Shown: piece after piece, positions 7,862-58,653 of the stretch
How the letters are laid out: the number at the start of each line of letters is the position of its first letter
Position numbering within the stretch: position 1 is the stretch's first letter
IMG/VR virus record: IMGVR_UViG_3300042894_007211
DNA: 64,000 nt
From: an uncultured virus (IMG/VR IMGVR_UViG_3300042894_007211)
Lineage: Duplodnaviria > Heunggongvirae > Uroviricota > Caudoviricetes
Direction: 5' to 3' (one strand)
The notes under the pieces: generated by a model
What the model was told of the DNA's origin: nothing
Seen by the model: the letters and a program-made list of their open reading frames with translations, nothing else
Databases searched by the model: none
Made by a program: the position numbers and the translations under genes

Positions 7862-8504
7862 GAATAGATTTAAAAAATTTGGCGGAGATTATATCCCTGA
7901 TATAATAGACTACATTAAAGATTACATAGATAAGGATCCAGGTGTCACTATTTCAATCGGCTGTGATTCAATTCAAAAACGTAGACGCACCGTTTATGCC
8001 ATAACTATAATGATGTATAATGGTGATTTAAAACACGGAGCTCACGTTGTATTTTTTAGAGAAAGTTGTCCTAAAATCAGAGAAAACAGTGAAAGACTTT
8101 TCAGAGAGGCTCAGTATTTACACGACTTAGGTGTTTACTTAGATGATGAGCTTTCTAAGTTTTATAAAAGAACAGACTTATCCGAAAGAGAAATGAAAAG
8201 ATATAAGTATCACCTTCTTAAATGTGCAGGTGAGTATTCACATGTTCCTCTTCATCAGGATGATGCGGTAATGAATGCGCTATTTCTCAGTCCTGCTGAT
8301 ATGATTGATTATAGAACAATTGATGTTCACGTAGACTTTAATCCATTTGAGGGTTCAATAAATGAGAAGGGTGTTCATAAAAACAAATCTTACGCAGCTT
8401 ATAAAAGCTACGCACCGTGGCTCAGAGGGATGGGTTTCCGTGTGTTCGCAAAGCCGCTCGGATTCGCCAGTACATCAGCAGCTGACTTGCTACTTCAAGA
8501 TTAA
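7854..8504 (+). CDS. RNase H-like YkuK (DUF458) family protein
   Basis: ISIGCDS, RLFREA, DVHVDFNP and C-terminal KP..FASTSAAD motifs; ATG at 7854 preferred. Confidence 0.75.
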   Translation: MFKNRFKKFGGDYIPDIIDYIKDYIDKDPGVTISIGCDSIQKRRRTVYAITIMMYNGDLKHGAHVVFFRESCPKIRENSERLFREAQYLHDLGVYLDDELSKFYKRTDLSEREMKRYKYHLLKCAGEYSHVPLHQDDAVMNALFLSPADMIDYRTIDVHVDFNPFEGSINEKGVHKNKSYAAYKSYAPWLRGMGFRVFAKPLGFASTSAADLLLQD

Positions 8505-8878
8505 TGTTTGAGTTAAATTCACATATGATACAAAAAATGGGGTGGTGGTTATACTACCCCAATTTAGGTTTAGGATTAGATTACCCAGGACTTTTTACTA
8601 ATGATTATATGGTGAGATTTTTCTTTATAGACAAAGAAAGAGAGCGAATATTTATTATTAAAGAAATGACTCCGGAAGAAAAACAAAAAACAAAAAAATT
8701 ATATAAATTTATAAAGTTTAATGTTTACAAAAAAAATGAAATCATTGATTTAAAAAACATTAAAATGAACATAGATAACTTCAATTCTAACACACAATTA
8801 TGGAAATTAGTTATTGAAAATGAGGCGTGTGATGAAAATTACCAAAGACACTTTAGATTAAACAAAATATTAAAATGA
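8504..8878 (+). CDS. Hypothetical protein with C-terminal RxxRLxxIL helix
   Basis: Ends QRHFRLNKILK. Confidence 0.7.
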   Translation: MFELNSHMIQKMGWWLYYPNLGLGLDYPGLFTNDYMVRFFFIDKERERIFIIKEMTPEEKQKTKKLYKFIKFNVYKKNEIIDLKNIKMNIDNFNSNTQLWKLVIENEACDENYQRHFRLNKILK

Positions 8879-9507
8879 AAAAGAGAGAATTAAAAATTAT
8901 TGGACTATCCTACAGTCAAACACAAATTGGCTCATATGTAATTGTACTTACTGATAAAAAAGGATTGAGAAAACTTCCGTTAATTATTAAACCATCTGAT
9001 GCTCAGAGAATTGCACTCGAACTTGAAGGTTTGAAACCACAAAGACCTCTAACACACGACCTTTTTAAATCTTTATCTGATTCTTTTGGAATTGACATTC
9101 AAGAAGTTTTTATTTATCAATTATTAGAAGGTATATTTTACACTAAGATAATTGTATCAAATGGTATAGAAGACTTAGAAGTTGATTGTTCTTTAGGTGA
9201 TGCAATTGCTCTTGCTACAATCTTTAAGTGTCCAATTTATACAACACAGGATATTTTAGACTCAACTGGTATATTTATGAATGATGATGGAACTATTCCT
9301 AAAGATGAAGATGTAGAGGATTATGATGAAGATGATGACATTGATGATGAATTTGATGAAATGCTAATGATGATAGATAGTGAGCCTTCAAGAAAAGTAT
9401 CTATCGAAGATTTAGAAAAAATTATGAATGAGGCAATCGATAATGAAGAATATGAAATAGCAGCGGAGATGCGTGACCGAATTCAAAAATTAAAAAATGA
9501 ACAATAA
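8875..9507 (+). CDS. Bifunctional nuclease (DUF151/BFN) domain plus C-terminal UVR domain
   Basis: LSYSQTQIGSY, KLPLII...AQRIA, RPLTHDLF, EGIFY, DAIALA; UVR-like EAIDNEEYEIAAEMRDRI. Confidence 0.88.
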   Translation: MKKRELKIIGLSYSQTQIGSYVIVLTDKKGLRKLPLIIKPSDAQRIALELEGLKPQRPLTHDLFKSLSDSFGIDIQEVFIYQLLEGIFYTKIIVSNGIEDLEVDCSLGDAIALATIFKCPIYTTQDILDSTGIFMNDDGTIPKDEDVEDYDEDDDIDDEFDEMLMMIDSEPSRKVSIEDLEKIMNEAIDNEEYEIAAEMRDRIQKLKNEQ

Positions 9508-9510
9508 AAA

Positions 9511-9942
9511 ATGGAAAAAAAACTTTATGACAAAATAGATAGAACAATCTTAAAATCATTACCTAATCCAACTGATGCTGCCTACGAGGCAAAAATTAAA
9601 ATACCTGAGTGTACATTTTTAGGCGTTCAAGAGCAACCAGATTTTGCTACCTTTTATTTAACATTTTATGCTGATGATAAAATTATTGAATTAAAATCTC
9701 TTAAACACTATATTTATCAATTAAGAGACATAATTGTTTCATATGAAAGATTAATTAATATTGTTTATGACGATTTGATGAATGTTTATGAGCCAACTAG
9801 ACTTAGAATTGTTATGGTTTGTAATCCACGTGGTGGAATTAGTTCTAAACTAACAATCGACTCAGATTGGAAAATTAGAGGTGGTCAAGAAAATTTCAAA
9901 GACTGGACACTTTCAGAAGACACTTGGGAAGTAGTGATGTAA
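9511..9942 (+). CDS. queF: QueF-like T-fold protein (atypical active site)
   Basis: PNP, PE.T.L...QPDFA, ELKSLKHY and PRGGI motifs of unimodular QueF; Gly at the expected catalytic Cys position. Confidence 0.75.
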   Translation: MEKKLYDKIDRTILKSLPNPTDAAYEAKIKIPECTFLGVQEQPDFATFYLTFYADDKIIELKSLKHYIYQLRDIIVSYERLINIVYDDLMNVYEPTRLRIVMVCNPRGGISSKLTIDSDWKIRGGQENFKDWTLSEDTWEVVM

Positions 9943-9973
9943 AACTTCCAATAAAAGAATAAATTAAATTAAT

Positions 9974-10946: not shown

Positions 10947-11168
10947 ATGAAATTTAAACCCGGTGATATAGTCATTAAAACCACAGGTGGAAATAAAATG
11001 ACAATCTTTGATAAGATATCAGATGGTGTTTATAAATGTCTTTGGTTTGTTGAAAGTTCTTGTAATGAATCCATCTTTAATGAAGATGAAATAGTTACTT
11101 TAAATGAGTATAAAAGGTTTCTGAAAACAGAAGAGCGCGAAGATAAAATCAATCAACTATTGGGTTAA
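10947..11168 (+). CDS. Small SH3-like (YodC/DUF2158-like) protein with C-terminal RxxKIxxLL helix
   Basis: FKPGDIVIKTTGGNKMTI...CLWF; ends EEREDKINQLLG. Confidence 0.75.
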   Translation: MKFKPGDIVIKTTGGNKMTIFDKISDGVYKCLWFVESSCNESIFNEDEIVTLNEYKRFLKTEEREDKINQLLG

Positions 11169-11200: not shown

Positions 11201-11710
11201 TTAAACAGAATAAAGACAGAAGTATTCAAACTTATCAGAAATCATTTTCATTTCTTCTTCTAAGTCTTTCTTATCAATGATTTTAATAATATCACCATTA
11301 CTACAGAATGTATATTCTTCAAATTCCAACTCACTCATGAATTCTACTTTCTTATCAATAGATAATCCTTTAAATTTATTAAATAATCTACGAAAATCAG
11401 GAAGTAATTCCTTACAAACCTCATCATATTCTTGTCTTATTCTCATAGGTTTAACACCTCTTACTCTTATTTCATCAGTAAGTTCTTTATTAGATAATCC
11501 TTTAAGTCTACTTGGTGGTGTTATCTTGTTTAACACAGCATAAAGTGACCAACGCCTTTCAGCTTCTGCTTTAACTCTATCAGTTATTCTTCTAGTTCCT
11601 GATATCCAAGTCTCAACACTAATTATATTATTAGCTGAACTAAGATTCAATAAGTATTTATCATTATCATCAATAGATTCAAATAATTTAAATTCCTTTA
11701 TATACTTCAT
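11201..11710 (-). CDS. Hypothetical protein with N-terminal capsid-targeting-like tag
   Basis: Starts MKYIKEFKLFES; TTAATATATA 8 nt upstream. Confidence 0.75.
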   Translation of the reverse strand: MKYIKEFKLFESIDDNDKYLLNLSSANNIISVETWISGTRRITDRVKAEAERRWSLYAVLNKITPPSRLKGLSNKELTDEIRVRGVKPMRIRQEYDEVCKELLPDFRRLFNKFKGLSIDKKVEFMSELEFEEYTFCSNGDIIKIIDKKDLEEEMKMISDKFEYFCLYSV

Positions 11711-11718
11711 ATTTATTA

Positions 11719-11728
11719 TATATATTAA
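11719..11728 (-). promoter_or_regulatory. Putative late promoter TTAATATATA
   Basis: Exact decamer recurring 16 times just upstream of starts. Confidence 0.7.
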
Positions 11729-11730
11729 AT

Positions 11731-12078
11731 ATGAAACTGGATATTAATGAGATAAATCATCAACATATTGTTAAAGTCGTGATCTTTGCACTTTTTATGT
11801 TTAAAAGACAAATAAGAAATACACCACTTTACCGTATATCAGTTTTGAAATTTGTAAAAGCAAGAATACCTTGGAAGATAGACTTAGTTATTCTGACAGA
11901 AGAGAAAAAAACTGTTGGTGAAGAAAGAGAAATGATACTAGATGAATTATTAAATGGTGTCAAATCTGATTATCTTTCAAAAATAAATGTTACATTTACC
12001 ACACCATTGAAAACAGTCACAATGGAAATTGATTTAAATGACGAAAAAAAATATGAACAATTTCTTTATCATAAGTAA
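11731..12078 (+). CDS. Hypothetical protein
   Basis: 115-aa ORF; internal EEREMILDELL resembles the C-terminal helix motif. Confidence 0.65.
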   Translation: MKLDINEINHQHIVKVVIFALFMFKRQIRNTPLYRISVLKFVKARIPWKIDLVILTEEKKTVGEEREMILDELLNGVKSDYLSKINVTFTTPLKTVTMEIDLNDEKKYEQFLYHK

Positions 12079-12080
12079 CC

Positions 12081-12296
12081 ATGTATATTTGTATTAGCAA
12101 CACATCTAAAAGAAAAGAACTTGTTATAGGTAAATACTATGAAGTTTTCAAACATGAAAGTGGTCCTAAATTCGCTTGGGTAAAAATAATTGATGAGTCT
12201 AACGCAGTTGGTTGGAGAACCATTCAATGTTATTCAGCGGATTTTAGTAATAAAAATGATTGGAGAGATAAACAAATTAATAAGATTTTAAGTTAG
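12081..12296 (+). CDS. Small SH3-like protein with C-terminal RxxQIxxIL helix
   Basis: YICISN...LVIGKYYEV; ends DWRDKQINKILS. Confidence 0.7.
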   Translation: MYICISNTSKRKELVIGKYYEVFKHESGPKFAWVKIIDESNAVGWRTIQCYSADFSNKNDWRDKQINKILS

Positions 12297-13639
12297 TCTT
12301 CCCAGAAAAAATATACATGTTTTTCTGGCCATCTATAGTCAAATGTAGCAAATCCATATAATTCAGCAACTCTTTCTAATCTATCATCAACATTTCTCGG
12401 AAGTTCACCATCAAAGTCAATTGATTCAAATTCAACATAAATATTATCATCATATTCTTTTATATTCTCGATATGTAATCCAGTTTTTTCCGAAAAGTAT
12501 TTTTTGAATTGTTCAACATCAAATTTCTTATCTCCTATTTTTTTATCTGTTTTTTTGAATTTGTAATCAATTGTGTTAAACTTAGCATCTGGTGTTTCAT
12601 CGTTATTATAACCTTCAAATCCAGTTACATCAAATTTTGCAAATGACCAACCTAAATCTTGAAGTCTAGCAATTGTTACTTGCATTTCATCAGCAATTTT
12701 TACAAAATCTTCATAAGTTTTAAATTTTTCATTTGTAGAAAATCTTATTGTAAACTGTGATACTTCAATACCACCAGTAGGGTTTACAACTGGTTGAAAA
12801 TCTCCACCACCATCTAAGTATTGTTGATATGTCATATCACCTAAAGTTGACTTGAATGTTATTTTATATCCGTCTTCAATTAAATCCAATACACAATCTA
12901 CAATATCCGAAATTACAGATTTATTATCAATACTTTCTTTGATGATATACTTATCGTTTTTTCTAACCGCTAATTTACCATCGATAAATTTATAAAACTT
13001 ATATTTCTGGTCTATTGATGTTACTAAATAATAAGCATCTGGATTAAGTGCTTTATACCTTTGAATGTTACCTTCTACTTTAACTCCATCGATTTCACCA
13101 CCTTGTTGTTTAGCATAAGCCCATTGAATATAATGTGGATCAACGTGTCGGTCTCTCAACTTATCTTGTTCGATTGATGTTTGTAAAGTTGAAAGAAGAT
13201 GAATGAATACTATTTTATATTCATTAATTTTTGCACTGTCAAAGATTTCTTTGACGTGTTCAAATCCACGGTCAGTAAATTCTTTTCCAGCGCCGGTTGT
13301 ATCATAGATAAAGTTCTGACCAGTTTCCATAAACTTTTCCATTCTGTTTAAGTTCAACTCTGATGCGTTTTTAGTTCTACCACCTTCAGGTAGTTCTTTA
13401 CCTTTATAATATATGTTAGGGTCTTTTGTATAGAGAAGAGAAACATCATCTGTTGAGAAATCCTTTATGTTAGGATTTTTAGAATGTATATGATTTTTAA
13501 CAAAATAAGACTTTCCGATACCAGGAGCTCCAATTAAGAAAATAGCAAGACCTCTATCAGTTCCAATAAGTTCCGGAATAGGCTCATTCTTTGATACCTC
13601 TTCTAAAATAAACTGATTATATTCTTTTAAAAATTTCAT
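12293..13639 (-). CDS. P-loop kinase (zeta-toxin/AAA_33-like) fused to a second domain, with N-terminal tag
   Basis: MKFLKEYNQFILEE; GAPGIGKS, FSTDD, FIYDTTG; internal KYIIKES junction. Confidence 0.7.
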   Translation of the reverse strand: MKFLKEYNQFILEEVSKNEPIPELIGTDRGLAIFLIGAPGIGKSYFVKNHIHSKNPNIKDFSTDDVSLLYTKDPNIYYKGKELPEGGRTKNASELNLNRMEKFMETGQNFIYDTTGAGKEFTDRGFEHVKEIFDSAKINEYKIVFIHLLSTLQTSIEQDKLRDRHVDPHYIQWAYAKQQGGEIDGVKVEGNIQRYKALNPDAYYLVTSIDQKYKFYKFIDGKLAVRKNDKYIIKESIDNKSVISDIVDCVLDLIEDGYKITFKSTLGDMTYQQYLDGGGDFQPVVNPTGGIEVSQFTIRFSTNEKFKTYEDFVKIADEMQVTIARLQDLGWSFAKFDVTGFEGYNNDETPDAKFNTIDYKFKKTDKKIGDKKFDVEQFKKYFSEKTGLHIENIKEYDDNIYVEFESIDFDGELPRNVDDRLERVAELYGFATFDYRWPEKHVYFFWED

Positions 13640-13648
13640 GGCGTATTG

Positions 13649-13658
13649 TATATATTAA
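13649..13658 (-). promoter_or_regulatory. Putative late promoter TTAATATATA
   Basis: Exact decamer 9 nt upstream of ATG 13639. Confidence 0.7.
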
Positions 13659-13668
13659 AAAAGATTAT

Positions 13669-13676
13669 TATATTTG
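13669..13676 (+). promoter_or_regulatory. Bacteroidota-type -7 element TATATTTG
   Basis: 4 nt upstream of ATG 13681. Confidence 0.6.
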
Positions 13677-13680
13677 TCTT

Positions 13681-14535
13681 ATGAGAGGATTTAGAATATA
13701 CAACAAAGCAGAACTATTCAACGCAATTGAAAAAATAACCGTTGAAAAAATTGAGGGTCAAGTTATTACCAAATATAATGGGCGTGTTACACAAGTAGCT
13801 AATGTATCGAATCGATATGAGATTTTTGATATTGTAAAATATCTTAAAGATAAAATTGAACTAATTGAGCAAAACTTTACTATTTCTAAATATCAATTGA
13901 TTATTAGAAAAGGTCAACAATACCTTCAACTTATTTCTGATAGTGTTGAAATCGGAGGTATCCGTTTTTACAAATCTTTCTACATCTTAAACTCAACAGA
14001 TAAATCACGCAGACTTAGTTTCTATGCTGGTCTACATTCTGAAAAATATTACTTCATTGGTGCAAACAATGTAGGTATGTCGAGGAAACATCTTACCGGT
14101 GTTACCGAAGCTGCTGATGTTGCATCAACTGCTCTCAATGGCGAAACATTCGATGATCAAATTGAAGCACTTCAAAACTTAGTTGGCCATCGTATTCAGT
14201 TCTCTAAAATTCGTCAGGTAATTTTAGGAGAAAAAGAAGAAATTCCACAAATTAATCATCGTAAGTTTGATGCGTTTAAGAACTCTGTTCGTTACGCAGA
14301 TGGTGATGGTCTCATTAGAATAACAAAAGAACAACGTTCTCAATTATACACAGAATCTGAAAGAATGAAAGAAGTCAAAGAAGATTTTTACTTAGATGCT
14401 TTCTGGGTTTTCGGGACTTATATGAGATTGTTTAATAAACAAGACTCTCATATCATTAAAAATGAAACAGACCGTATTATGAAAATTACACAATGGGCTG
14501 TTCGTAATAATGTTTTAGAATCACTAGGTATCTAA
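13681..14535 (+). CDS. DUF932/DUF945-like protein
   Basis: VSNRYEI near N-terminus and ILNSTDKSRRLSFYAG...RKH resemble the LxNSHDG...KH pattern; ends VRNNVLESLGI. Confidence 0.5.
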   Translation: MRGFRIYNKAELFNAIEKITVEKIEGQVITKYNGRVTQVANVSNRYEIFDIVKYLKDKIELIEQNFTISKYQLIIRKGQQYLQLISDSVEIGGIRFYKSFYILNSTDKSRRLSFYAGLHSEKYYFIGANNVGMSRKHLTGVTEAADVASTALNGETFDDQIEALQNLVGHRIQFSKIRQVILGEKEEIPQINHRKFDAFKNSVRYADGDGLIRITKEQRSQLYTESERMKEVKEDFYLDAFWVFGTYMRLFNKQDSHIIKNETDRIMKITQWAVRNNVLESLGI

Positions 14536-14540
14536 TTATT

Positions 14541-15023
14541 ATGCTACTAGAAGACAACTCCGGATTTGTAAACTTTCCTATACCAGGGAAAGTCATAGAT
14601 AGAATCGAAGATATTAAAACTTTTATCTATTTAGTTGCATTTGAAACATTGGACCTTACTAATGTTCCTTACATACTTTCCAACTGTAGATTAAATCTAC
14701 AAGGTACTCTTGTATCTGATGATGTTACTTTTAGAAAAAGATTCTCACATAATACTTTAGATGATATTGTTGAAGAACAACTTGATAACAATGAGTTCGA
14801 AAGTCGTTACTTTCCGAATATGAATGGTGACACACAATCATCTATTCCACTTACTACCTGTATTTGCTTAGGTTGGTCTGAACACACCTATCAATTTAAA
14901 GACTCAACAGATTGGGTCTGTACTTTTAGAGACCTAACTAATGAAGGTCAAAAGTTATACTACTCAATTAAAAAATTACACAACAATAAAGAAGTAAGAA
15001 TTTTAACTTTTAACAACATTTAA
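14541..15023 (+). CDS. Hypothetical protein
   Basis: 160-aa ORF in operon. Confidence 0.7.
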   Translation: MLLEDNSGFVNFPIPGKVIDRIEDIKTFIYLVAFETLDLTNVPYILSNCRLNLQGTLVSDDVTFRKRFSHNTLDDIVEEQLDNNEFESRYFPNMNGDTQSSIPLTTCICLGWSEHTYQFKDSTDWVCTFRDLTNEGQKLYYSIKKLHNNKEVRILTFNNI

Positions 15024-15025
15024 TG

Positions 15026-15055
15026 TTGACTTTTTCAATTTAATCACTATATTTG
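15026..15055 (+). promoter_or_regulatory. Bacteroidota-type promoter
   Basis: TTG 15026-15028, 19 nt, TATATTTG 15048-15055. Confidence 0.65.
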
Positions 15056-15069
15056 TAGAAACTAATTTT

Positions 15070-16374
15070 ATGGCATACGAAAGAAAAACCTACGACCTTT
15101 TTATCTCTGATGATTTAAAAACGATTTTAGAACAAATTAAATCAGAATCAGTTGTTGCTGATTTGCTTCTTAAACGCAGACATCAAAAGGAAGATTTGGT
15201 AGACGATCCAGTCAATTTCATTTCTATATCATCACAAGACCCTACACGCATTTCATATCTCACAACTGAGCGTATTGGTCAAATTGACGAATCTGATTAC
15301 TGGACATCCTCTCGTCGATTTCATATCAAACCAGGCGGGTTTATCTCAAAGGTATTTAAAGATATCTCACCAAAAGATGTTGAGACTTTTTCTAATCTTT
15401 ATCGATCAGAGGCAAAGAAACCTAAATTTGAGTTTCGTATTTTCAAAGGTCAAGATATCAGAGGTAATTATCATTATTCACGACACGCGAGTGATTATGG
15501 AAGTCTTGGTGTATCTTGTATGAGATATGATAGTTGTCAAAAAATGTTTGATGTTTACGTCGATAATGATGATAAGATTTCAATGATTGCTATGCTAAAT
15601 GAAGATGGTTACATTATGGGTAGAGCTCTTCTTTGGAACTTTGATGGTAATAAAATTATGGATAGAATTTATACAGTCAATGACGAACAATTGCAATTCT
15701 TTTTTAAGAAGTGGGCAACTGAAAATGGATATTGGTATAAAGCTCAACAAAACTGGTATAACTCAATTCAGTTTGAGCGAATTGGTGAAGGAAAAAAACT
15801 ATTTAAGTTTGATATCAAATTAGACCACTCTGATTTTAGATACTATCCTTATATGGATACTTTCAAATTCTTCAATCCAGATAGTGGTACTTTTTCAAAC
15901 TACAGACCAGAAGGTAGAGACCATTACACTCTTTGTTCTTCCGATGGTAGTAAATATGATTGGAATTACCTTTCTTATGATGATTTCGACCAAGTTTACC
16001 GACACAGAGGAGAAACTGTTAGACTTGACTATTTAAATATGTCAGCACATCCAGATAGATGCAATTATTCAGATGTTCTTGACCGTTACATTCTTTGTGA
16101 CCACGCTGAATGGCGAGAAGACATTAGAGACTATGTTTTCGGAAGTGAATATGATAAATTTAATGACCAAGATGCCATTCAGTCAAAATTAGACTACATT
16201 CAGGAAAGCGAGACCAGAAGATCGAGAAGAAGTGCTGGAAGAAGTGTAAGTCAATTAACAGAAATGTTAGAACAAGCAAGAGAGGGTAACGATATGCACA
16301 TGATATACGAGCAAATTTTGTCTCAAATATCAAATGATTATGTTGTTCAAAGACCTAGTCCAACTCAGGAGTAA
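15070..16374 (+). CDS. Conserved phage hypothetical protein (SCM...RAL.W...DRIY...PYMD motifs)
   Basis: 434-aa ORF with SCMRY, GRALLW, MDRIYT, YPYMDTF. Confidence 0.7.
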   Translation: MAYERKTYDLFISDDLKTILEQIKSESVVADLLLKRRHQKEDLVDDPVNFISISSQDPTRISYLTTERIGQIDESDYWTSSRRFHIKPGGFISKVFKDISPKDVETFSNLYRSEAKKPKFEFRIFKGQDIRGNYHYSRHASDYGSLGVSCMRYDSCQKMFDVYVDNDDKISMIAMLNEDGYIMGRALLWNFDGNKIMDRIYTVNDEQLQFFFKKWATENGYWYKAQQNWYNSIQFERIGEGKKLFKFDIKLDHSDFRYYPYMDTFKFFNPDSGTFSNYRPEGRDHYTLCSSDGSKYDWNYLSYDDFDQVYRHRGETVRLDYLNMSAHPDRCNYSDVLDRYILCDHAEWREDIRDYVFGSEYDKFNDQDAIQSKLDYIQESETRRSRRSAGRSVSQLTEMLEQAREGNDMHMIYEQILSQISNDYVVQRPSPTQE

Positions 16375-16379
16375 TTAAG

Positions 16380-16400
16380 GAGACCTTATGGTCTCTTTTT
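16380..16400 (+). terminator. Short intrinsic terminator between convergent genes
   Basis: gagacc-ttat-ggtctc-ttttt. Confidence 0.6.
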
Positions 16401-16931
16401 ATTTTTCTTATAACCATCAAGTAGCTCTATCACGTTTTTGTAATCGTAATAATTCAGGTATCTATCTATTGTTTTGATAAATTCCACAGGTTTTCTATCC
16501 ACATGAATTAGTATATCGAAATAATAACCAAAATAGTTGTAGACTTTTTTTTCTGATATCAGGCCAGTCTTTATGTAGATGTTAAAATAAGAAAGTTTAT
16601 CAAAAAAGTTATCAAATAGGTCTCTACAATAAGCCTCTTCAGTTGTAAATCGAGATTTTTTATTGTGTGTTTTTAAAGCTTCTATTAAATAATCATCATT
16701 TATTTTGAAAGGTTTTCCATCTATCTCTATAGTTCTGGCATTCCAATCAAGCAGTGTTAAAACGGTTTTGATACTTTCATCTGAAAGGAATTCTTTAGCT
16801 TCTTTTGCTAAAAATTCAGATTCTTTCCACAACTGAGACCTTCTATATTCAATGATTGCTTTTATGAAAGTCAGTATTGCAAATATTGGTAAGATGTCAG
16901 AGATAAATGTAAAGACCAATTCCATAAACAA
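16386..16931 (-). CDS. Membrane-anchored hypothetical protein
   Basis: N-terminal hydrophobic helix (ILPIFAILTFIKAII), helical soluble domain. Confidence 0.7.
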   Translation of the reverse strand: MFMELVFTFISDILPIFAILTFIKAIIEYRRSQLWKESEFLAKEAKEFLSDESIKTVLTLLDWNARTIEIDGKPFKINDDYLIEALKTHNKKSRFTTEEAYCRDLFDNFFDKLSYFNIYIKTGLISEKKVYNYFGYYFDILIHVDRKPVEFIKTIDRYLNYYDYKNVIELLDGYKKNKKRP

Positions 16932-23343: not shown

Positions 23344-23577
23344 ATGGATGAATTGTTAAGGATTAATTCTAAAGTTTTTGGTCAGTATTATACTAAAAAA
23401 ATAAAAGACTATTTTGATGAGGGTCAATTGGTAACAGTTTATGCACATCACAGTCTAAGAATATTCACAACAGATAAAAATGGAAACATATTTAAAATTC
23501 AACATCCCGATTTTGGAACAATTTTTTTCACAAAGTATGAATGGAGAAACAAAAAAATAAATAAAATATTAAAATGA
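23344..23577 (+). CDS. Small protein with C-terminal RxxKIxxIL helix
   Basis: Ends EWRNKKINKILK. Confidence 0.7.
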   Translation: MDELLRINSKVFGQYYTKKIKDYFDEGQLVTVYAHHSLRIFTTDKNGNIFKIQHPDFGTIFFTKYEWRNKKINKILK

Positions 23578-24442: not shown

Positions 24443-24814
24443 ATGTTATCAAATAAAGAAAAAAAGAGAAGACAACACGAAAAAGAGTTATTAGCCATTA
24501 GAAATAAAATGGGTAATAGTGTCATATGGTTTGATGCGCTTAATAAGGTACAACAATATGATTTACTTTATTTGTGGAAAAGAGAAAAGTATAGAAACAA
24601 ACTAACAAGTCCAAAGAAAAAAACTTTGTATAAAAAAATTAGTGGATTTTCCAACGGTAAGTTCCAGATTATAAAAAAAGAAATTGAAGTAATTTCTTAC
24701 CCTGTAAACTTTAAACACTTCCTAAAAGAAATAAAACCTCGTTTTAGTGTTAGTGTTACAAAAATGAGAGAAGCCAGGCTTCAACATTTACTTAAAGATG
24801 ATAGTAAGACCTAA
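24443..24814 (+). CDS. Basic hypothetical protein with RxxRLxxLL helix near C-terminus
   Basis: Ends KMREARLQHLLKDDSKT. Confidence 0.7.
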   Translation: MLSNKEKKRRQHEKELLAIRNKMGNSVIWFDALNKVQQYDLLYLWKREKYRNKLTSPKKKTLYKKISGFSNGKFQIIKKEIEVISYPVNFKHFLKEIKPRFSVSVTKMREARLQHLLKDDSKT

Positions 24815-39967: not shown

Positions 39968-42961
39968 ATGGCAACATTTATTACGTCCAAATCCGTTGGA
40001 AATGATATTAACATTTATGTTGAAACATCAACTGGATATTGGAAATATAACCACAATGGAGTAGATTCTGCAGTTTTTCCAAATGGTGAACAAACAATCA
40101 CAGTAGCAAATGCAAATGGTGAGTTCACACTTATTTCATGTCTTTCAGATGGTACAGTTAGTGGGGATGTAACTTATTTAGAATTAAGTGAAAATCAAAT
40201 TACTTCATTTGATGGAACGGGTTTATCTGGTTTAACTGAGTTGTATTTAAATAATAACCAATTAACTTCATTTGATGGAACTGGTTTAACAAGTTTAACT
40301 ATTTTAAATTTAGGTACCAACCAATTAACTTCATTTGATGGAACTGGTTTAACAAGTTTAACTGGTTTATATTTAAGTAATAACCAATTAACTTCATTAG
40401 ACGGTTTTATTTTACCAACAAGTTTAACTAATTTAGAATTAAATGAAAACCAATTAACTTCATTTGATGAACCTGGTTTAATAAGTTTAACTTATTTGAA
40501 TTTAAGTGATAATGGATTAACTTCATTAGATGGTTTTATCTTACCAACAAGTTTAACTTCTTTACATTTAAGTGATAATGGATTAACATCATTTGATGGA
40601 ACTGGTTTAACAAGTTTAACTATTTTAAATTTAGGTACCAACCAATTAACATCATTTGACGGGACTGGTTTATCTAATTTAACTAATTTGGATTTACGAA
40701 ATAACCAATTAACATCATTTGATGGAACAGGTTTATCTAGTTTAACTTATTTGGATTTAAACTTAAACCCATTAACTTCATTTGATGGGACTGATTTAAC
40801 AAGTTTAATTGGTTTTGTGTTATTTGAAGATAAAGGAAGTTCTAACATAATTACACCTGAATTAAACAATTCAATATTGAACCAATTAAATACAAATGGT
40901 GTTGAAGATGGATACTTCTTTTCATCAAATGGTAGAACATCAGCAAGTAATGTTGATTACGATAACTTAGTAAGTTTAGGTTGGCAATTCCGTGGACTTG
41001 ATCTAACAGTTGGTGGAGGATCTAAATATGCGGCTAAATATGTTGGAACAGATCCTGCCCCACCTGGATGGACAAAAGTTGGAAATATCGCAGTAGATGT
41101 TGATGGAATTGCTTCAAGTGAAGATTTACCATTCTCACCTGGTATTTATGAGACATATGATACCGATGGTTATGTTGTAATTTCCGATACATCAAATGCT
41201 GGTTTGGTTGGTAGAACTACTGGAGGAGGTGGTATTCAATCAAATGCAGAAACACCAACTTATTGGGCAAGTGTTAGTAAGTCTGATGAAAGTTTTAAAA
41301 CTTTAGTAAGTCAGATTTCAAAACAAACGTTTGTAACTGCTACAGATGCTAAAAGTTGGTTGGATAATAATGGTTATTGGACATCTTTCGTAGATGCTAC
41401 TTCATTTGTTTCTGTATGGAATACAACATTGGGGGGGGATGGTAACCCATCAATTATATTACCATTAGTGTCATCAGGAAACTACAATTTTAGTGTAAAC
41501 TGGGGTGATGGAAACACTGATACTATCACTGCATATGACCAAGCAGAAGTAACCCACATATATGCGGAAGGTGGTGAATACACTGTAACAATTACAGGAA
41601 CAATTGAGGGATGGTCATTTTCTACAACAATAGCCGAAAAATTATTATCAATCACAAATATCGGACCACTTAAATTAGGAAATGAAGGTTATTATTTTCT
41701 AGGATGTTCAAACTTAACAACAATTGGTGGCATATTTGATTTGACAGGAGTAACTAATATGGCTAGTATGTTTGAAAGCTGTACTTCATTAACATCAGTA
41801 AATGGAATTGGCTCATGGGATGTTTCTTCTGTAACTGATATGGGTGATATGTTCAATAGTGCAACAGCATTCAACCAACCATTAAACTCATGGGATGTTT
41901 CCGCTGTAACTAATATGGGTGGTATGTTTGATTATGCCACATCATTCAACCAAGACATAAGTTCATGGGACGTATCTTCTGTAACTAATATGATTTATAT
42001 GTTTACTAATGCATCATCATTTAACCAAAACATTAGTTCATGGGATGTTTCCGCTGTAACTAATATGGGTGCAATGTTTGCTGGAGCATCATCATTTAAC
42101 CAAAACATTAGTTCATGGGATGTTTCCGCTGTAACTACTATGGCTGCAATGTTTGGTTCAACAAAAGACAATTTTTCTATCTTCAACCAACCATTGAATT
42201 TATGGAATGTATCTTCTGTAACGGATATGGGTGCTATGTTTGCTGGCAACTTATACTTTAACCAAGATATCAGTTCATGGAATGTATCTAATGTAACTAA
42301 TATGAGTTATATGTTTGCCGTTGAAAGTGGTGATATACCATTCAACCAAGACATCAGTTCTTGGAATGTTTCTAATGTAACTACTATGGCTGGTATGTTT
42401 AGGGGAGCCACGTCATTTGATCAAGACATCAGTTCTTGGAACGTATCTTCTGTAACTGGGATGTCGAGTATGTTTAATAGAGCCACTTCATTTAATCAAA
42501 ATATTGGTGGTTGGACTACTTCAGCAGTAACTGATATGTCTGGTATGTTTAGAGATGCAACAGTCTTCAACCAAGATATTAGTTCATGGGATGTATCTTC
42601 TGTAACGGATATGGGTAATATGTTTGATTATGCCACATCATTCAACCAAGACATCAGCTCTTGGGATGTTTCTTCTGTAACTGGTATGTATGCAATGTTC
42701 AATGGCGCAACTGCTTTCAATCAAGATATTAGTGGATGGAATGTATCTTCTGTGACCACTATGATGGATTTCATGACTGGTAAATCAACAGCTAACTTCT
42801 CATACTATGATGATCTATTAAATGCTTGGTCTGCATTAACTCTACAAAATGGAGTAACATGGGATATGGGTACAATTGAGTACACTGCTACTGGATCAAC
42901 TGCTAGAGCAAACATCATCTCAAATTATTCATGGGCAATTACTGATGGTGGACTGATATAA
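39968..42961 (+). CDS. LRR plus BspA/DUF285-repeat adhesin-like protein with internal shared module
   Basis: ~10 LRR units ([17 protein letters not shown]), NGYWTS module, PKD-like WGDG, ~14 [17 protein letters not shown] repeats; TTAATATATA at 39935. Confidence 0.85.
40190..40810 (+). repeat. Tandem 63/66-bp LRR-coding repeats
   Basis: Recurrent aaccaattaacttcatttgatggaactggtttaacaagtttaact. Confidence 0.85.
41745..42780 (+). repeat. Tandem ~75-bp DUF285-coding repeats
   Basis: Recurrent ttcaaccaagacat.agttc.tgg.atgt.tcttctgtaact..tatg. Confidence 0.85.
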
Positions 42962-44090: not shown

Positions 44091-44759
44091 ATGAACAAAG
44101 TAAAACTGTTAGAAGTAAAGAAACTTCTAAAAGAATTAGAATTTATTGAATCCGATTTTGAGTATCGAAACGAAATTATCAGTGAAGCTGATGCTCAATT
44201 TATAAATTCAATAAATCAATTTCTACAAAATCATCCAGACCTGAAAGAAATCTATGATAACAAAGTTACGGAAAAAATTAATCAGTCAATCAAAAAAACG
44301 CAAGAAAGTGCAGATGAAGACCAATCAGAAGCCACCGGCATCCATATTCAAGAAGATGATACAGATAGCCAGAAAGAAGAACCTGAGAACACTGAAGAGA
44401 TTGAAGAGGAAAATAAAAATACAAAACATCTTTCGCAATTAAAAAAACTTTATCGAGAAATTGTTAAATTGACACATCCTGATAAAATTAAAAACGAAAG
44501 ATTAAATGAAATTTATTTGAAAGCAACTAAATATTATGATGAAATAAACAAAATTGGTATCTATGCTGTTTGTAATGAATTATCAATTGTTTATGAAATT
44601 GAGACAGAAGATATTTCACTAATTTACGATGAAATTCAAAAATATCAACAAAAGATAAATTTTATTGAAAGTACATACACTTGGAAGTGGTTTAATTGTG
44701 AAAATGATGAGCAAAAAGACCAGATATTATTAAATTATATTAAACTTAAAATTAGATAA
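44091..44759 (+). CDS. J-domain-like (HPD) co-chaperone
   Basis: LKKLYREIVKLTHPDK after a coiled coil and acidic linker. Confidence 0.7.
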   Translation: MNKVKLLEVKKLLKELEFIESDFEYRNEIISEADAQFINSINQFLQNHPDLKEIYDNKVTEKINQSIKKTQESADEDQSEATGIHIQEDDTDSQKEEPENTEEIEEENKNTKHLSQLKKLYREIVKLTHPDKIKNERLNEIYLKATKYYDEINKIGIYAVCNELSIVYEIETEDISLIYDEIQKYQQKINFIESTYTWKWFNCENDEQKDQILLNYIKLKIR

Positions 44760-45387
44760 CGTTAATTTTAATTTTCTTATCTCTAATTAAATCTTCTAAT
44801 TCTTCTTTTCTAAATGTCTTTTTGTAAATGTCATTTTCTTTATCAGAATTTTGCAGAACCCACTCATTTCCATTACTTGTTGTGTAAATATAGTTCTGGT
44901 CAGCGTCTACAATTTCAATTGTTCTTGATGTCAATTTATCATAAAACTTTTTAACATCATCATTTACTTTATATAATTTTACCTCCTGCCATTTATCTAA
45001 AGTATCGTTCCATATTTGCATCATCAAATAAACCGGATTTTCTAATTCATTTGAATTAATATCATAAACAAACATAAACTTACAAGGTTTATTCAAAAAA
45101 GTTTGATAATCATCAGAGTTTCTTAATTCTGATTTTTTTAGGGCTAAACTTGAAAGTGAATTTATAAATTCAATACTATTAGAAAGAAAATCTAAATCAA
45201 GATTTGCACTGAAGTCACCCTCAGGCAGTTTCAAAGTATCGAATATATTTGTTTCTTCAGCACCAATTGATGACAACAAAGCATCGTGCCAAATAGTCAA
45301 TGACTCTAATAAGTCTTCAACTCTTTGAAAAGTTAAGTCAATCACTAATGATTCTTTAAATTGATTATATCTTTTCATATGTTTCAT
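44752..45387 (-). CDS. Hypothetical protein with N-terminal tag
   Basis: MKHMKRYNQFKES; TTAATATATA 4 nt upstream. Confidence 0.78.
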   Translation of the reverse strand: MKHMKRYNQFKESLVIDLTFQRVEDLLESLTIWHDALLSSIGAEETNIFDTLKLPEGDFSANLDLDFLSNSIEFINSLSSLALKKSELRNSDDYQTFLNKPCKFMFVYDINSNELENPVYLMMQIWNDTLDKWQEVKLYKVNDDVKKFYDKLTSRTIEIVDADQNYIYTTSNGNEWVLQNSDKENDIYKKTFRKEELEDLIRDKKIKINVI

Positions 45388-52239: not shown

Positions 52240-53307
52240 ATGAAAAATAAAACCTCACTTAACTTAAATATAAATAAAGACGATTCAAGTATTAACGACT
52301 ATTTGTTTTGCTGGAACGTCTTTGATAGTAGACCAAATAAGGTACTAGTACACGATAGTTATTTAGCTAACGATTTTCTAAAAATCATAAGTGAAATGAC
52401 AATAGAAAAAAATGATTTCACAGAAATTCTACCGGATGATGAGTGTGATATCATTAACTCAAAAACTCTGGCAAAGTTATCAGAAGGTGTTTATATCTCA
52501 TATGTCTTAATTGATGAAAAACAACCAGATGCTATAGTTTCTGAAATTACATTCTTCTATCAATCAGAAAATGATAAAGAGTTAATTGATGAAATAATTG
52601 AAAACTTAGTTCAACATTGTGAAGTTGACTATCAAGAATCTGAAATCAACAAATTAAACGCTATTGGATTTTCAGGAAATTCACTTGAATTAGAAAGAGT
52701 AGATACAAAAATTGATTTAGATGCTATAGAATTGTACTATAACAATAAAACAATGAAAGACATCAATAAGTTAGTTAAGAAAATCAAAAAATCACAAACT
52801 GGTTTAAGTATTCTTTACGGTGATAGAGGCACAGGCAAAACTTCAGTAATTCATTACTTAGCAACTAAACTTGATAGAATTGTTATTTTTGTTGCTAACA
52901 ATATGTTAGAACACACTATAAACAATCCAGACTTTAGAAAATTCATTAAAAAATACAACAAAGTCTTACTTGTTTTAGATGACTGTGAGATGTCTTTCAA
53001 CGAATACTTTGTTAAATCAAACTTTATTGTTAATAACCTACTTCAACTGGTTGATGGATTCTTATCAGACACTGTTGATTTAAGCATAGTCGCTATATTC
53101 AACGTTGAATGTTCAGAAGAAATCGATCACAATTTGATGAATTGTAATAACTTAATTGACATCATTTATTTTGATGAGTTAGAAATTAGTGAAGCTAACG
53201 AACTTTCAGAACATTTAGGAGACAAATCAAAACAAAAAAACAAATCAAAACTCATAGATATAATAAAGAAGAGAAAATCGTTGAATAATAAAAAAATAGG
53301 ATTTTAA
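52240..53307 (+). CDS. AAA+ ATPase
   Basis: ILYGDRGTGKTS, LLVLDDCE, NLLQLVDGFL. Confidence 0.85.
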   Translation: MKNKTSLNLNINKDDSSINDYLFCWNVFDSRPNKVLVHDSYLANDFLKIISEMTIEKNDFTEILPDDECDIINSKTLAKLSEGVYISYVLIDEKQPDAIVSEITFFYQSENDKELIDEIIENLVQHCEVDYQESEINKLNAIGFSGNSLELERVDTKIDLDAIELYYNNKTMKDINKLVKKIKKSQTGLSILYGDRGTGKTSVIHYLATKLDRIVIFVANNMLEHTINNPDFRKFIKKYNKVLLVLDDCEMSFNEYFVKSNFIVNNLLQLVDGFLSDTVDLSIVAIFNVECSEEIDHNLMNCNNLIDIIYFDELEISEANELSEHLGDKSKQKNKSKLIDIIKKRKSLNNKKIGF

Positions 53308-53648: not shown

Positions 53649-54759
53649 AGAGTACAAACAATTAGAAAAGAAAATTAATAACCAAAACTTTAATGAAGGT
53701 TATAAAACCATCAATATGGTTTTACTAGCACTGTCTTGGTTTGGACACATTGCATCTGTTTTCTTAGCTTATTTTATGCTTTCTAAGATCCTATCTGGTG
53801 CAATGACTGATAATCAAGTTGCTGTGTTTGCGGCATCAGTAATCATACTTTCTGGTATCGAACTTTTGAAAAGAGATATTTTTGATAAGTTCTCAATCCA
53901 ATATTTAAAAATAAAATCTTTACAGAAAGTGTTACCACTTTTCTTATTAAGTGTGATTATAATTGGTATTTCTTTTTACTCATCAATTTCTGGAGCTAAA
54001 GAATTTGCTTCAAAAGAAAAACAATTTGAAAATGATAAAGAACTTATTCTAACTGAATATTCAGATTCACTTAATAGAATTAGCGATAGTATTGTAAAAT
54101 CAAAAGATCTTGAAATTACTACTTTAAAAGCTAAATTAGATATCAAAGATAAAGAACAAACAGATATCGAGGCTCAACAACCACTTACTCGTCAACAAAG
54201 ACAACGTGTGGCGGATTTGAAAAACGAAAGAGCTACTCTAAGAGGTGATATTGATAAAGTTGAGACTGATAAAGAAAAAGTTACAACTGAAACTGCCACT
54301 AAAATTAAGCAAAAAGAGGCAGAACTTGGTTCAAAAACCGATGAAAAGAAGAAAGACAACTCTAAAAATACTGTAATGTTTGTTATTGTTTCAACACTCA
54401 TTGAGATAACAATATTAGCGGGTGTTTACTTTAATGAATATTATAAATTTAGAAGCTATAGAGAATTTAGAGATAAATTAGAAAAAGATCCAAACTATCA
54501 GAAGTTTATGCTTTATGAACAAATACTTCAAGTGATATACCCTGAAGATACTAAAATGAATCAAAAATTACCGTCAAATAAAGCCATTATTGATATGTGT
54601 AAGGTAAATGATATGATTGTACTTAATAAAGATATTACTGATTTCTTAAAAGTTATATCAGGACTCGGTATTATTAAAGTTAGCGGTGCTGCTAAGTATA
54701 TCAACAAACAACGAGACCTTTCTTTTGAAATACTCAGAAAACACTTTAATGTTGAGTAA
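53638..54759 (+). CDS. Multi-pass membrane protein with long coiled coil
   Basis: Three N-terminal TM segments, ~130-aa coiled coil, fourth TM. Confidence 0.75.
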   Translation: MKIEEYKQLEKKINNQNFNEGYKTINMVLLALSWFGHIASVFLAYFMLSKILSGAMTDNQVAVFAASVIILSGIELLKRDIFDKFSIQYLKIKSLQKVLPLFLLSVIIIGISFYSSISGAKEFASKEKQFENDKELILTEYSDSLNRISDSIVKSKDLEITTLKAKLDIKDKEQTDIEAQQPLTRQQRQRVADLKNERATLRGDIDKVETDKEKVTTETATKIKQKEAELGSKTDEKKKDNSKNTVMFVIVSTLIEITILAGVYFNEYYKFRSYREFRDKLEKDPNYQKFMLYEQILQVIYPEDTKMNQKLPSNKAIIDMCKVNDMIVLNKDITDFLKVISGLGIIKVSGAAKYINKQRDLSFEILRKHFNVE

Positions 54760-55007
54760 TGAAAACTGGAGATATTGTAGTTTTTATTGGCAAAGATTTA
54801 CAAGATAAACACTTGAGTAATTTCACTTTTGGATATAGATACAAAATTAAATCAGTAACGCCACTACCAGACGGTGATTACTATGTTGATAATTTAGCTG
54901 TTTTATTTGAAGACTTTCCATACGGAGTAATAAAATCTAATTTTGAGAAATACTTCGTTAATGTAAACGATTTCAGAAATCACCAGATTGTAAATATAAT
55001 ACAATGA
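54759..55007 (+). CDS. Small SH3-like protein with C-terminal RxxQIxxII helix
   Basis: MKTGDIVVFIG...FTFGYRYKI; ends DFRNHQIVNIIQ. Confidence 0.7.
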   Translation: MKTGDIVVFIGKDLQDKHLSNFTFGYRYKIKSVTPLPDGDYYVDNLAVLFEDFPYGVIKSNFEKYFVNVNDFRNHQIVNIIQ

Positions 55008-56105: not shown

Positions 56106-56118
56106 CAACTTTTCATAG

Positions 56119-56146
56119 AAACCGAACTTATCAGTTCGGTTTTTTT
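56119..56146. terminator. Intrinsic terminator between convergent genes
   Basis: aaaccgaact-tatc-agttcggttt followed by a T run. Confidence 0.8.
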
Positions 56147-56594: not shown

Positions 56595-56668
56595 AACTGT
56601 ATATATGAAAAAAATAAAAGTAGGTTTGAATTTTAATATATAATAAGTTAAAACTAAAAAGATTGTAT

Positions 56669-57217
56669 ATGAAAAAATTCAGTAAAATAACCAATCAACA
56701 GGTATCAGAAGAACCAAAAGTTGAAGTAAAGCAACTAAATGAAGAAGATCTATTCAAAGCCAAACTTATGAACTTAATGGATCATATACTTTCTGTTAGA
56801 ACATATGGACCAGTTGACAGACACCAGAGAGCGGGTCTTATCAAAATTGCTGGTAAAGAAATGTTAGTTGAAGCTATTTTAGATTTATTAACAGAAAAAT
56901 CAGCTAAAGACCAAACAAAAGTTTTAGAAGGACTAAAATCAGAAATCAGAGATTGGCAAGTTATAGATGCAAAAATTGATAATATCAATAAAGAAAGAGT
57001 ATCACTTGCTAACAGAAATAAATTTAAAAATCTTCTCGAAAACTATACTGAAGAAGATTTACTAATTAAAGTTGTAGAAAAAGATGTTGATAAAATCACA
57101 AAAGAAAAAACTTTAAACGATTATATCACTCTAACTTCAGAATCTAAATTAAATAACTCAACAAAGTCAGAATTAATCGAAATTTATTCTAATAGGTTAA
57201 ACCAATTGGCTAACTAA
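56669..57217 (+). CDS. Hypothetical protein (late-type)
   Basis: MKKFSKI...LNEE; TTAATATATA at 56633. Confidence 0.72.
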   Translation: MKKFSKITNQQVSEEPKVEVKQLNEEDLFKAKLMNLMDHILSVRTYGPVDRHQRAGLIKIAGKEMLVEAILDLLTEKSAKDQTKVLEGLKSEIRDWQVIDAKIDNINKERVSLANRNKFKNLLENYTEEDLLIKVVEKDVDKITKEKTLNDYITLTSESKLNNSTKSELIEIYSNRLNQLAN

Positions 57218-57230
57218 GAATAAAATATTT

Positions 57231-57692
57231 ATGATTAATGAAGAAAATTTTAGTCACCTTTTTAGTGATTTTGTAATTGCGGATTCAAATCCGTTCAAAT
57301 TATCTACGCAAGAGACATATAAAGAAGGCGGTGAATTGAAATTAAAAACCAACGACATCAATATTGATTTAGCAGAGGTTAACTCACCTATTGATTTAAT
57401 ATTAACTAATAACAATTTTGAAATTGTAGAATACTACCCAAATACATTTCTTAAAAAACTATTTCGTTTGAAAAACTCAGATGGATTAAAGTTTGACGGA
57501 ACTGACAATCATTTTGTTTTTATGTCTGAGAAAACTTCTAAAATATTCAAAACAAATTGTAAAGTTTATCCTCTACAAGAAGACAATAAAGTCATAATCG
57601 GGAGGAGGTCTATGATAATAATTCATCAAAAAGATGAAAAATATTTTATGTGGTCAGACCCGTCAAACTACAAAACAATTCTAATTAGATAA
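57231..57692 (+). CDS. Hypothetical protein
   Basis: 153-aa ORF. Confidence 0.65.
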   Translation: MINEENFSHLFSDFVIADSNPFKLSTQETYKEGGELKLKTNDINIDLAEVNSPIDLILTNNNFEIVEYYPNTFLKKLFRLKNSDGLKFDGTDNHFVFMSEKTSKIFKTNCKVYPLQEDNKVIIGRRSMIIIHQKDEKYFMWSDPSNYKTILIR

Positions 57693-58653
57693 TACCAAGT
57701 TGGGATAGTAATAAATCTCTTTGTAAAGAAACATCTTCAAACTTTGAGTAATCATAATAGTTAGAGACACCTCTATCATTTAATACACAAACTCTAACAA
57801 AGCCATGTTGAATGTTAGAAGTAATAACGTGATAACTTTTACCTTCAGTAAGTTCAAGTTGTGTACCATATTTTACTTCTTGTGTGCAATTTAATACTGT
57901 ACCAGTTGGAACTTCCATAAACTTTTTGATTTTCTTTGAAATGATTTCAATTATAAAATCAGAATTTAATTTTCTAAAATCTATTTCTGAATCTTGTATA
58001 AAATCAGCCAAAGACTTCATCATAGCAGTTGAAATTTCAACTTCTCTGTGAGGTATTCTTTTCAGAGCCGATTCTAAAATAGTTTCTCCAGTTCCGTTAT
58101 TGTAAACTGATTTTAAAAACCATTTTATTTTATTCCAATAAAGGCTTTGTTCATGAAAAGACTTGTGATCATCAGCATAAGCAACTGAAAAAGTATCTAT
58201 TTCATTACAAATGATATAATTCATAATTGGAACAAAACAAACCGATAAACCATCAGCTCGCTCACTGTGTCTACGACCAATACCTCTTCTGTTTGGTTTT
58301 CTTAACCAACGACCATTAAGTAAACGATCATAAGTTTGGCCGTTCTCAGTCAGTAGTTTAACAAAATCTTTTTGAGTTCTGTTTTTGACATATGTTTTAA
58401 ATCTTTCAACTTTTGTGTGTTGAACGATAATCTCTTTTAATTTTTTCCAACTAATAGGTTTATCTAATTCAAAATTGAGTTCTTCTGTCAATTTTCTGAA
58501 ATTATAAAATTCAGCAAAATCACCTAACTTCAGTGAATTCATCGCACCAGTACTCACTTCTCCCTTTTCGAATTGTGAAATAATAGGGAATTGTTCTTTA
58601 GCTTGCTCGTAAAATCTTATATTTTGACGAATAGCCTCATAAGTAAATTTCAT
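57685..58653 (-). CDS. Hypothetical protein with C-terminal SH3-like domain and RxxxLxxL helix
   Basis: VLNC...LTEGKSYHV...NDRG, then QRDLLLSQLGII. Confidence 0.72.
   Translation of the reverse strand: MKFTYEAIRQNIRFYEQAKEQFPIISQFEKGEVSTGAMNSLKLGDFAEFYNFRKLTEELNFELDKPISWKKLKEIIVQHTKVERFKTYVKNRTQKDFVKLLTENGQTYDRLLNGRWLRKPNRRGIGRRHSERADGLSVCFVPIMNYIICNEIDTFSVAYADDHKSFHEQSLYWNKIKWFLKSVYNNGTGETILESALKRIPHREVEISTAMMKSLADFIQDSEIDFRKLNSDFIIEIISKKIKKFMEVPTGTVLNCTQEVKYGTQLELTEGKSYHVITSNIQHGFVRVCVLNDRGVSNYYDYSKFEDVSLQRDLLLSQLGII

Follow-up and report, generated by a model that had tools for sequence, protein, structure and literature searches.

The window analyzed here is a stretch of 64,000 nucleotides from an uncultured virus (IMG/VR record IMGVR_UViG_3300042894_007211), and the element in question is a short peptide motif, R-x-x-[KQR]-[IL]-x-x-[IL]-[LIG] (hereafter the tag), found at or near the C-terminus of about one in eight of the proteins encoded there. 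The window has a GC content of 30%, is 95% coding, and encodes a sigma factor, HU, sugar-nucleotide enzymes and a baseplate wedge protein, together with many proteins of no assigned function; a simple codon-based script, used for all gene calls, gave 82 genes. The phage belongs among the AT-rich megaphages of the Mahaphage group. The baseplate protein encoded in the window shares 70% identity with that of LR745206 (634,780 bp), 67% with that of LR756502 (642,428 bp) and 38–40% with those of LR756504 and LR756501. In the part of PMC7162821 drawn on here, the Mahaphage clade takes in genomes of 634, 636, 642 and 735 kb, with predicted Bacteroidetes hosts. The genes that carry the tag or a variant of it (the carriers), and one gene that may encode its reader, are listed below in window positions.

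8504–8878, + strand: carrier, 124 amino acids, no Pfam family; tag RHFRLNKIL at 8846–8872, kept in 3/3 orthologues.
10947–11168, + strand: carrier, 73 amino acids, predicted DUF2158/YodC-like SH3/KOW barrel (residues 1–51) and long helix (52–71); tag REDKINQLL at 11136–11162.
11731–12078, + strand: protein with the internal variant REMILDELL at 11926–11952, kept in 3/3 orthologues.
12081–12296, + strand: carrier, 71 amino acids, SH3-like signature; tag RDKQINKIL at 12264–12290; next gene convergent.
13681–14535, + strand: 284-amino-acid protein, loose tag RNNVLESLG at 14503–14529; TAnnTTTG upstream; RNSVLE[AS]LGI in 3 orthologues of the clade.
23344–23577, + strand: carrier, 77 amino acids, between sugar epimerase and UDP-glucose dehydrogenase genes; tag RNKKINKIL at 23545–23571.
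24443–24814, + strand: carrier, 123 amino acids; tag REARLQHLL at 24767–24793 (variant REAAIDLLL in LR745206); TAnnTTTG upstream.
30728–30826, + strand: open reading frame (ORF) of 32 amino acids, uncertain as a gene, ending in RCQKLEQIL at 30794–30820.
30823–31080, + strand: carrier, 85 amino acids, SH3-like (weak DUF6501); tag RELKLKEIL at 31042–31068.
31409–31699, + strand: carrier, 96 amino acids; tag RDIKLNSIL at 31658–31684, present in 3/3 orthologues; matches in the ESM Atlas confined to unnamed viral clusters.
52240–53307, + strand: YjoB/Bcs1-like AAA+ ATPase by fold search, with C-terminal IGF; candidate reader.
54759–55007, + strand: carrier, 82 amino acids, SH3-like signature; tag RNHQIVNII at 54975–55001.
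57685–58653, − strand: 322-amino-acid protein with, in its sequence, an SH3-like domain at the end and the loose tag RDLLLSQLG at 57694–57720.

A first-pass annotation, made from the letters alone, had proposed that some eleven otherwise different proteins share this C-terminal helix. All nine strict peptides are present at the genes named, as are the two looser ones (13681 and 57685) and the internal one (11731), although the ORF at 30728, which has no orthologue among the genomes compared, may not be a gene; the ORF at 54759 likewise has none. A further loose match, at 44752–45387, proved to be a false positive, with orthologues that lack the motif. Of the 82 window proteins, 9 have the strict motif within their final 20 amino acids, where 0.05 would be expected, and only 1 of 17,927 other positions matches it. 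Shuffling the last 20 residues of each protein 10,000 times gave a mean of 0.11 matches and a maximum of 2, and pooled shuffles gave a maximum of 3. Since the motif was defined on the window itself, the independent test is that of the relatives, which were analyzed whole (LR745206, LR756504, LR756501, LR756500, MaF61, G002, G009 and G012) or in part (280 of the 281 kb of G001; 60 kb of Lak-A1).

Strict and looser tags, respectively, number 110 and 152 among the 945 genes of LR745206, 44 and 102 among the 915 of LR756504, 37 and 45 among the 393 of G001, and 20 and 34 among the 244 of G002. They are sparse in G012 (6 and 24 of 879), G009 (3 and 4 of 179), LR756501 (2 and 10 of 1008) and LR756500 (1 and 2 of 671), and MaF61 has none among 195 genes. 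In control windows placed 25 or 45 residues upstream there was no strict match in LR745206 (0/1648), LR756504 (0/1592), G001 (0/686) or G002 (0/446), and a relaxed profile found 172 of the 945 genes of LR745206 vs 5 of 2165 control windows. A proxy search at the DNA level over 40 records gave 12 records with 19–58 matches, the reversed pattern giving 0–5 in any record. Enrichment, by which the proposal was to be judged, is thus large in the window (over shuffled C-termini) and in four relatives (over control windows), in which up to one-sixth of the proteins are tagged. The carriers are not always scattered singly, as had been supposed: those at 30728 and 30823 are adjacent, and relatives have arrays of tagged genes.

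The tag is spelt in dialects according to lineage: R[DEN]xK[IL]xx[IL][LG] near the window, RKx[KIR]IxxL[LIN] in LR756504 and RTELIDK[IV]L in LR756501. G012, where the DNA proxy found only 2 matches, could not serve as a tag-negative control, because gene calling revealed 24 looser tags in a dialect of its own; no close tag-negative genome was obtained among the relatives. A profile of 80 tags found nothing meaningful in the PDB (best E 0.14) and a single spurious match, to a repeat, among 1.84 billion representative sequences, the motif being too short for such searches. The carrier at 30823 had no tblastn match in 50,697 phage records.

Selection acts on the peptide and not on a DNA element, because the codons of the tag vary synonymously about as freely as those of the bodies, and because position 0 is Arg and never Lys. 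In 56 orthologous pairs, with bodies 49% identical, synonymous differences affect 37% of the key tag codons (83/225) and 42% of the body codons (1116/2662), and codon use in the motif is that of the genome. When the remaining positions are kept constant, Arg occupies position 0 at 142 of 151 sites and Lys at none, against a background in which Lys (9.0%) is 2.5 times commoner than Arg (3.5%). Among orthologues found by the body alone, R-x3-h-x2-h (where h is hydrophobic) is kept in 119 of 122 for carriers vs 18 of 919 for non-carriers. The Arg usually lies 9–12 residues from the stop (range 9–20), and the last residues are free. In LR745206, the neighbour of 29 of the 153 carriers is convergent, so that the tag does not depend on coupling to a gene downstream.

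The bodies to which the tag is attached are unrelated, as expected of the portable module first suggested. Once the tag is masked, BLAST puts the 154 carriers of LR745206 in 154 families, and the 148 bodies long enough to test fall into 147 profile clusters; the carriers are not homologous outside the helix, which disposes of the notion that it is a packing element of one domain family. Their median length is about 100 amino acids, and a Pfam scan of 150 of the 154 gave 6 matches at E ≤ 0.001, one of them over its cut-off. An SH3/KOW-like signature, which the first-pass annotation had ascribed to several carriers and not to others, is present in 5 of the 11 window carriers and in only 18 of the 154 in LR745206. 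A membrane anchor is predicted in 3 of the 154, and other bodies include a PolB-like fragment, fragments resembling the major head protein, and two superfamily 2 (SF2) helicases. LR756504 differs in having tandem paralogues, with 83 families among 103 carriers. For the carrier at 10947 (Pfam match to the DUF2158/YodC-like family at residues 6–48, E 7e-6), the AlphaFold2 model (predicted local distance difference test 93) consists of a KOW/SH3-type barrel and a 20-residue helix with the tag at its far end; it matches the NusG KOW with Z 7.5 and a root-mean-square deviation of 1.4–1.6 over 52 residues. The tag is probably unburied, judging by its distance from the barrel in the model, and R64, D66 and K67 are invariant in 120/120 homologues among the matches listed.

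The tag is enriched at C-termini, as the first reading had it, but it is not confined to them. In LR745206 there are 12 internal copies, where shuffling gives a mean of 0.8 and a maximum of 4, and some proteins carry two copies. In a core SF2 helicase (a DNA helicase according to the libraries, and presumably UvsW-like), the motif is an insertion in a loop, present in 10 of 19 orthologues: with the full motif in LR745206, G031, G007 and G011, a near match in G010 and G013, a damaged motif in LR756502, G004 and G015, and no motif in G012. The insertion was lost in G008 and G009 and is absent from seven more distant orthologues. Such internal copies, which are new in this analysis, indicate that the tag is probably a portable docking motif without need of a free C-terminus, and it is the helicase loop insertion that most strongly favours a docking motif rather than a terminal degron. 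As a separate observation, about 1.4 kb interrupts the UvsW-like helicase gene of G034 (82325–85282; L334, L326) between the codons for residues 200 and 213, precisely where other genomes have the tag-bearing loop.

Carriers also differ from presumed virion genes in their promoters. An AT-rich box characteristic of the genes with an N-terminal tag, which are presumed to be virion genes (the box is called late-type here), heads the transcription unit of 16 of the 154 carriers in LR745206 vs 75 of 99 N-terminally tagged genes, whereas TAnnTTTG, which we take to be the Bacteroidetes housekeeping promoter, heads that of 51 of 154 carriers vs 4 of 99. The AT-rich box is likewise scarce on carriers in LR756504 (11/103 vs 36/57). 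The early or middle timing first proposed is thus upheld by the promoter motifs of LR745206 and by one of the two in LR756504; the window alone is too small to tell.

Taken together, the motif is probably a docking peptide read by one shared protein partner. It would be a short helical peptide of the form [E]-[IL]-R-[DEN]-x-K-[IL]-x-x-[IL]-[LG], read by that partner early or in the middle of infection. On a helix, Arg0, Lys+3 and positions +4, +7 and +8 fall at 0, 300, 40, 340 and 80 degrees, i.e., on one face, so that the Arg may enter an acidic pocket beside a hydrophobic groove; with the Arg inside the hydrophobic face, a protein pocket would suit the peptide better than a membrane. The variable bodies, from SH3/KOW barrels, zinc-binding-like domains and membrane anchors to capsid-protein-like fragments and helicases, would then be interchangeable adaptors or clients at a hub.

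Which protein is the hub can be said only tentatively. A conserved protein of the Bacteroidota host is a serious possibility, somewhat short of even chances and at least as likely as the ATPase at 52240. One hint points to a host reader. A stringent pattern, in one dialect, gave 111 matches over GTDB genomes, of which one (L411) ends a clear gene with the Arg in frame, and no conserved cellular family with the tag was found with this pattern; as 31 loci had short flanks and a single dialect was covered, a host mimic may have been missed. The hint is an island on a Bacteroidetes metagenome-assembled contig, with two tagged small ORFs (L411:2939–3277 and 4001–4303, − strand) that have no megaphage homologue, beside a resolvase, an AbiEii-type gene and DUF932; the genome behind it shows no overall enrichment (8 matches vs 7 in the control).

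A guess at the kind of hub, rather less likely than not, is an AAA+ remodelling machine, by analogy with p97. The p97 VCP-binding motif (VBM; consensus EhRRRRLxhh in the part of PMC5389986 consulted) is the closest analogue in form: it too is an Arg-led short helix in unrelated proteins, many of which dock on one AAA+ hub. Aligned with E-h-R-x-x-K-h-x-x-h-h, it agrees at −2, −1, 0, +3, +4 and +7 and disagrees at +1, +2 and +6; as described there it is eukaryotic and belongs to a handful of cofactors, whereas the phage tag occurs 100–170 times per genome and has an acidic or polar +1.

Among phage proteins, the ATPase at 52240 is the best named candidate, although the chance that it is the hub appears small. 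Its best fold matches are YjoB (7w46, E 9.5e-12) and Bcs1, and YjoB of B. subtilis is a substrate-specific chaperone (PMC9565160, in part). Homologues, which diverge fast, are present in 23 of 40 records, including all four GenBank genomes of 634–735 kb, G004–G007, G012, G013 and G027, and absent from LR756500, G026, MaF61 and Lak-A1; the gene thus occurs in large tag-bearing genomes and is missing from tag-poor ones. A conserved gene of 109 amino acids follows the ATPase in most orthologous loci (window:52240–54759), usually with a gene for a 373-amino-acid membrane coiled-coil protein, and in some homologues the ATPase is joined to a pair of PurH-like domains (PF02142, PF01808) in one protein. 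The AAA protein at 6423 occurs also in LR756500, where the tag is at background level. PrkA/YeaG was rejected as reader, being in only 6 of 40 records and absent from G004, G006, G007, G013, G027 and G028, which are tag-rich and nearly complete; a complete PrkA/YeaG, DUF444/YeaH and SpoVR operon lies at 480112–484920 of LR745206 and in several of these megaphages. A Cdc48 N-domain was rejected too (CDC48_N in 0/5 phage records, with no ring in a Bacteroides control genome either).

Perhaps the most elaborate form of the idea, which is speculative and improbable as a whole, is a modular adaptor platform: 100–170 small, fast-evolving, target-binding modules, among them capsid-protein-like decoys and membrane anchors, would plug by the Arg helix into one AAA+ remodeller (perhaps the 52240 ATPase), which would unfold, disassemble or destroy captured host proteins, and sister lineages would have switched to other private tags.

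Several points weigh against docking on a shared partner, or against the hubs named for it. The partner itself is a postulated, candidate one. The VBM has its hydrophobics at +6/+7 and the phage tag at +7/+8, and the likeness is an analogy only, given that no Cdc48 N-domain was found in the five phages searched. About 57 genes of LR745206 share the presence pattern of the 52240 ATPase, so that its profile does not single it out, and it was not found in tag-rich G028 and G018, both of which are probably partial records. The helicase copy appears dispensable, though conserved over some distance: the loop has Asp for Arg in G004 and Ser at +4 in W02, is degenerate in G012, and is gone from G008 and G009. 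As for timing, carriers of LR756504 are not enriched for TAnnTTTG (7/103 vs 6/57), the promoter labels are presumptive, and RNA data usable for timing were not found, the one lake metatranscriptome giving 0.06 of words, on contigs of relatives only.

The leading rival, unlikely as it seems, is that the tag is a degron by which early proteins are timed for destruction by a Clp- or Lon-type protease of host or phage. The tag is mostly C-terminal and on non-late genes, resembling the ssrA/transfer-messenger RNA (tmRNA) degron in being a short C-terminal label on unrelated proteins; the phages encode ClpC without its N-domain (20/40 records), ClpP (12/19 records) and ClpS; and the 52240 ATPase ends in IGF, IGL or IGY, presumably like a ClpP-docking loop. 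Against this, the Arg stands 9–20 residues from the end with the last residues free, helicases carry internal copies, and the tag, unlike that of ssrA, is gene-encoded with a variable tail. Nor does it match the phages' own tmRNA tags: none of the 9 tmRNA loci translated from related phages encodes the motif, their tag peptides being long (about 28–34 amino acids) and lineage-specific (L362, L363, L364, L365, L366, L367, L356). A phospho-arginine degron (McsB/ClpC) was rejected, a McsB-type kinase (PF00217) being encoded by 0/5 phages (phage genes only). Phage ClpC/ClpP as reader is weakened because tag-rich G027 (676 kb, 98% complete) encodes neither protein, and ClpP is present in the tag-poor LR756500, G026 and Lak-A1. 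Among five phages tested, Clp_N is absent from the ClpC of LR745206, LR756504 and G012 and present only in that of LR756501. The phage ClpC of LR745206 lies at 423224–425329 (L057:3224–5329), and a tagged gene stands directly upstream of it there and in G001. SPO1 Gp53, a ClpCP adaptor, is likewise an early phage protein that engages an AAA+ machine in host takeover, but it is a single protein, and the abstract of PMC6873191 describes no shared portable peptide.

Less likely again, tags might have no separate reader, pairing with each other or binding the membrane and so gathering carriers in one assembly or at the envelope. This would agree with the amphipathic pattern, with the predicted helix that projects from the barrel and with the two-copy proteins. 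Against it, Arg0 lies in the middle of the hydrophobic face, not at its edge, and is never Lys, which is not the pattern known from membrane-targeting helices; only about 2.5 helix turns are conserved, and 3 of the 154 carriers in LR745206 already have a predicted anchor.

Docking on the phage sliding clamp or another replisome hub has still less to recommend it. The spacing +4, +7, +8 equals that of the PCNA-interacting protein (PIP) box and of T4-type clamp-binding tails, some carriers act on DNA (two SF2 helicases, the PolB-like fragment), and a divergent clamp is a core gene of the clade (E 9e-4). The tag, however, has an invariant Arg and no aromatic pair, it is absent from the polymerase, the PolB subunits ending in another L-x-x-F-type peptide, and some 150 clients, some of them membrane-anchored, fit one clamp pocket poorly.

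It is very improbable that the tag serves as a signal for packaging the carriers in the virion. The model for this would be the capsid targeting sequence (CTS) of T4, which is N-terminal and tied to head assembly. In the part of PMC3012670 drawn on, the CTS is a short, conserved peptide shared by very diverse and rapidly evolving accessory proteins with roles in defence, the internal proteins of T-even phages, which makes it the closest analogue in phage biology. The phage tag is C-terminal or internal, without the N-terminal position that defines the CTS, and its carriers avoid late-type promoters in LR745206 and LR756504; moreover, a separate, N-terminal CTS-like tag rarely coincides with it (7/154 carriers vs 120/791 other genes by a loose pattern in LR745206). 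Equally improbable is a signal in DNA, mRNA or the nascent chain (a recombination site, translational coupling or termination control), for although overlaps with the next gene are over-represented in LR745206 (66/153 carriers vs 132/495 small untagged genes), the Arg keeps its usual distance from the stop and the window tags are 73–84% alike over 31–35 nucleotides, the free synonymous sites, ordinary codon use, convergent neighbours and internal copies oppose it.

A docking peptide for a shared partner thus remains the preferred reading. The tag could not be matched to any of the known tags considered, and the mechanism proposed for it is what we infer. No description of it was found in the literature searched, including the text of PMC7824862, PMC7162821, PMC8297831 and bioRxiv 10.64898/2026.10.24.761521 (supplements and subscription journals not covered).

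Other private peptides occur among the relatives. LR756501 (W04; L109–L145) has DPYGEE[DN]W on 89 proteins, with free synonymous codons, at C-termini, directly after the N-terminal tag and between domains; it is absent from the other genomes compared. About 14 proteins of LR756500 (W05; e.g., 11706–16900) end in NADDFG(F/L), most of them with an N-terminal MKYIK-type tag. In G012, at about 33–220 kb (L270–L280), roughly 100 or more paralogues of 180–350 amino acids have the common C-terminus ILKYQRHFEIWNDDLTLNEENFxxLIxEIxDGL. In the window itself, 39968–42961 encodes a 997-amino-acid protein with leucine-rich repeats, a PKD-like domain and DUF285 (BspA-like) repeats, which show in the DNA as repeats of 63 and 75 nucleotides.

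The tag is real, large in scale, under selection at the protein level and undescribed in the literature searched. A single peptide links 11–18% of the proteins of some of the largest phages known, and almost all of these proteins are unannotated. If the partner were found, more than 100 unknown proteins per genome would gain a common step, and the finding would show how giant phages organize and retain their many new accessory genes. The adaptor platform, if true, would be a phage counterpart of the logic of p97 and its cofactors, or of Cullins and their adaptors.

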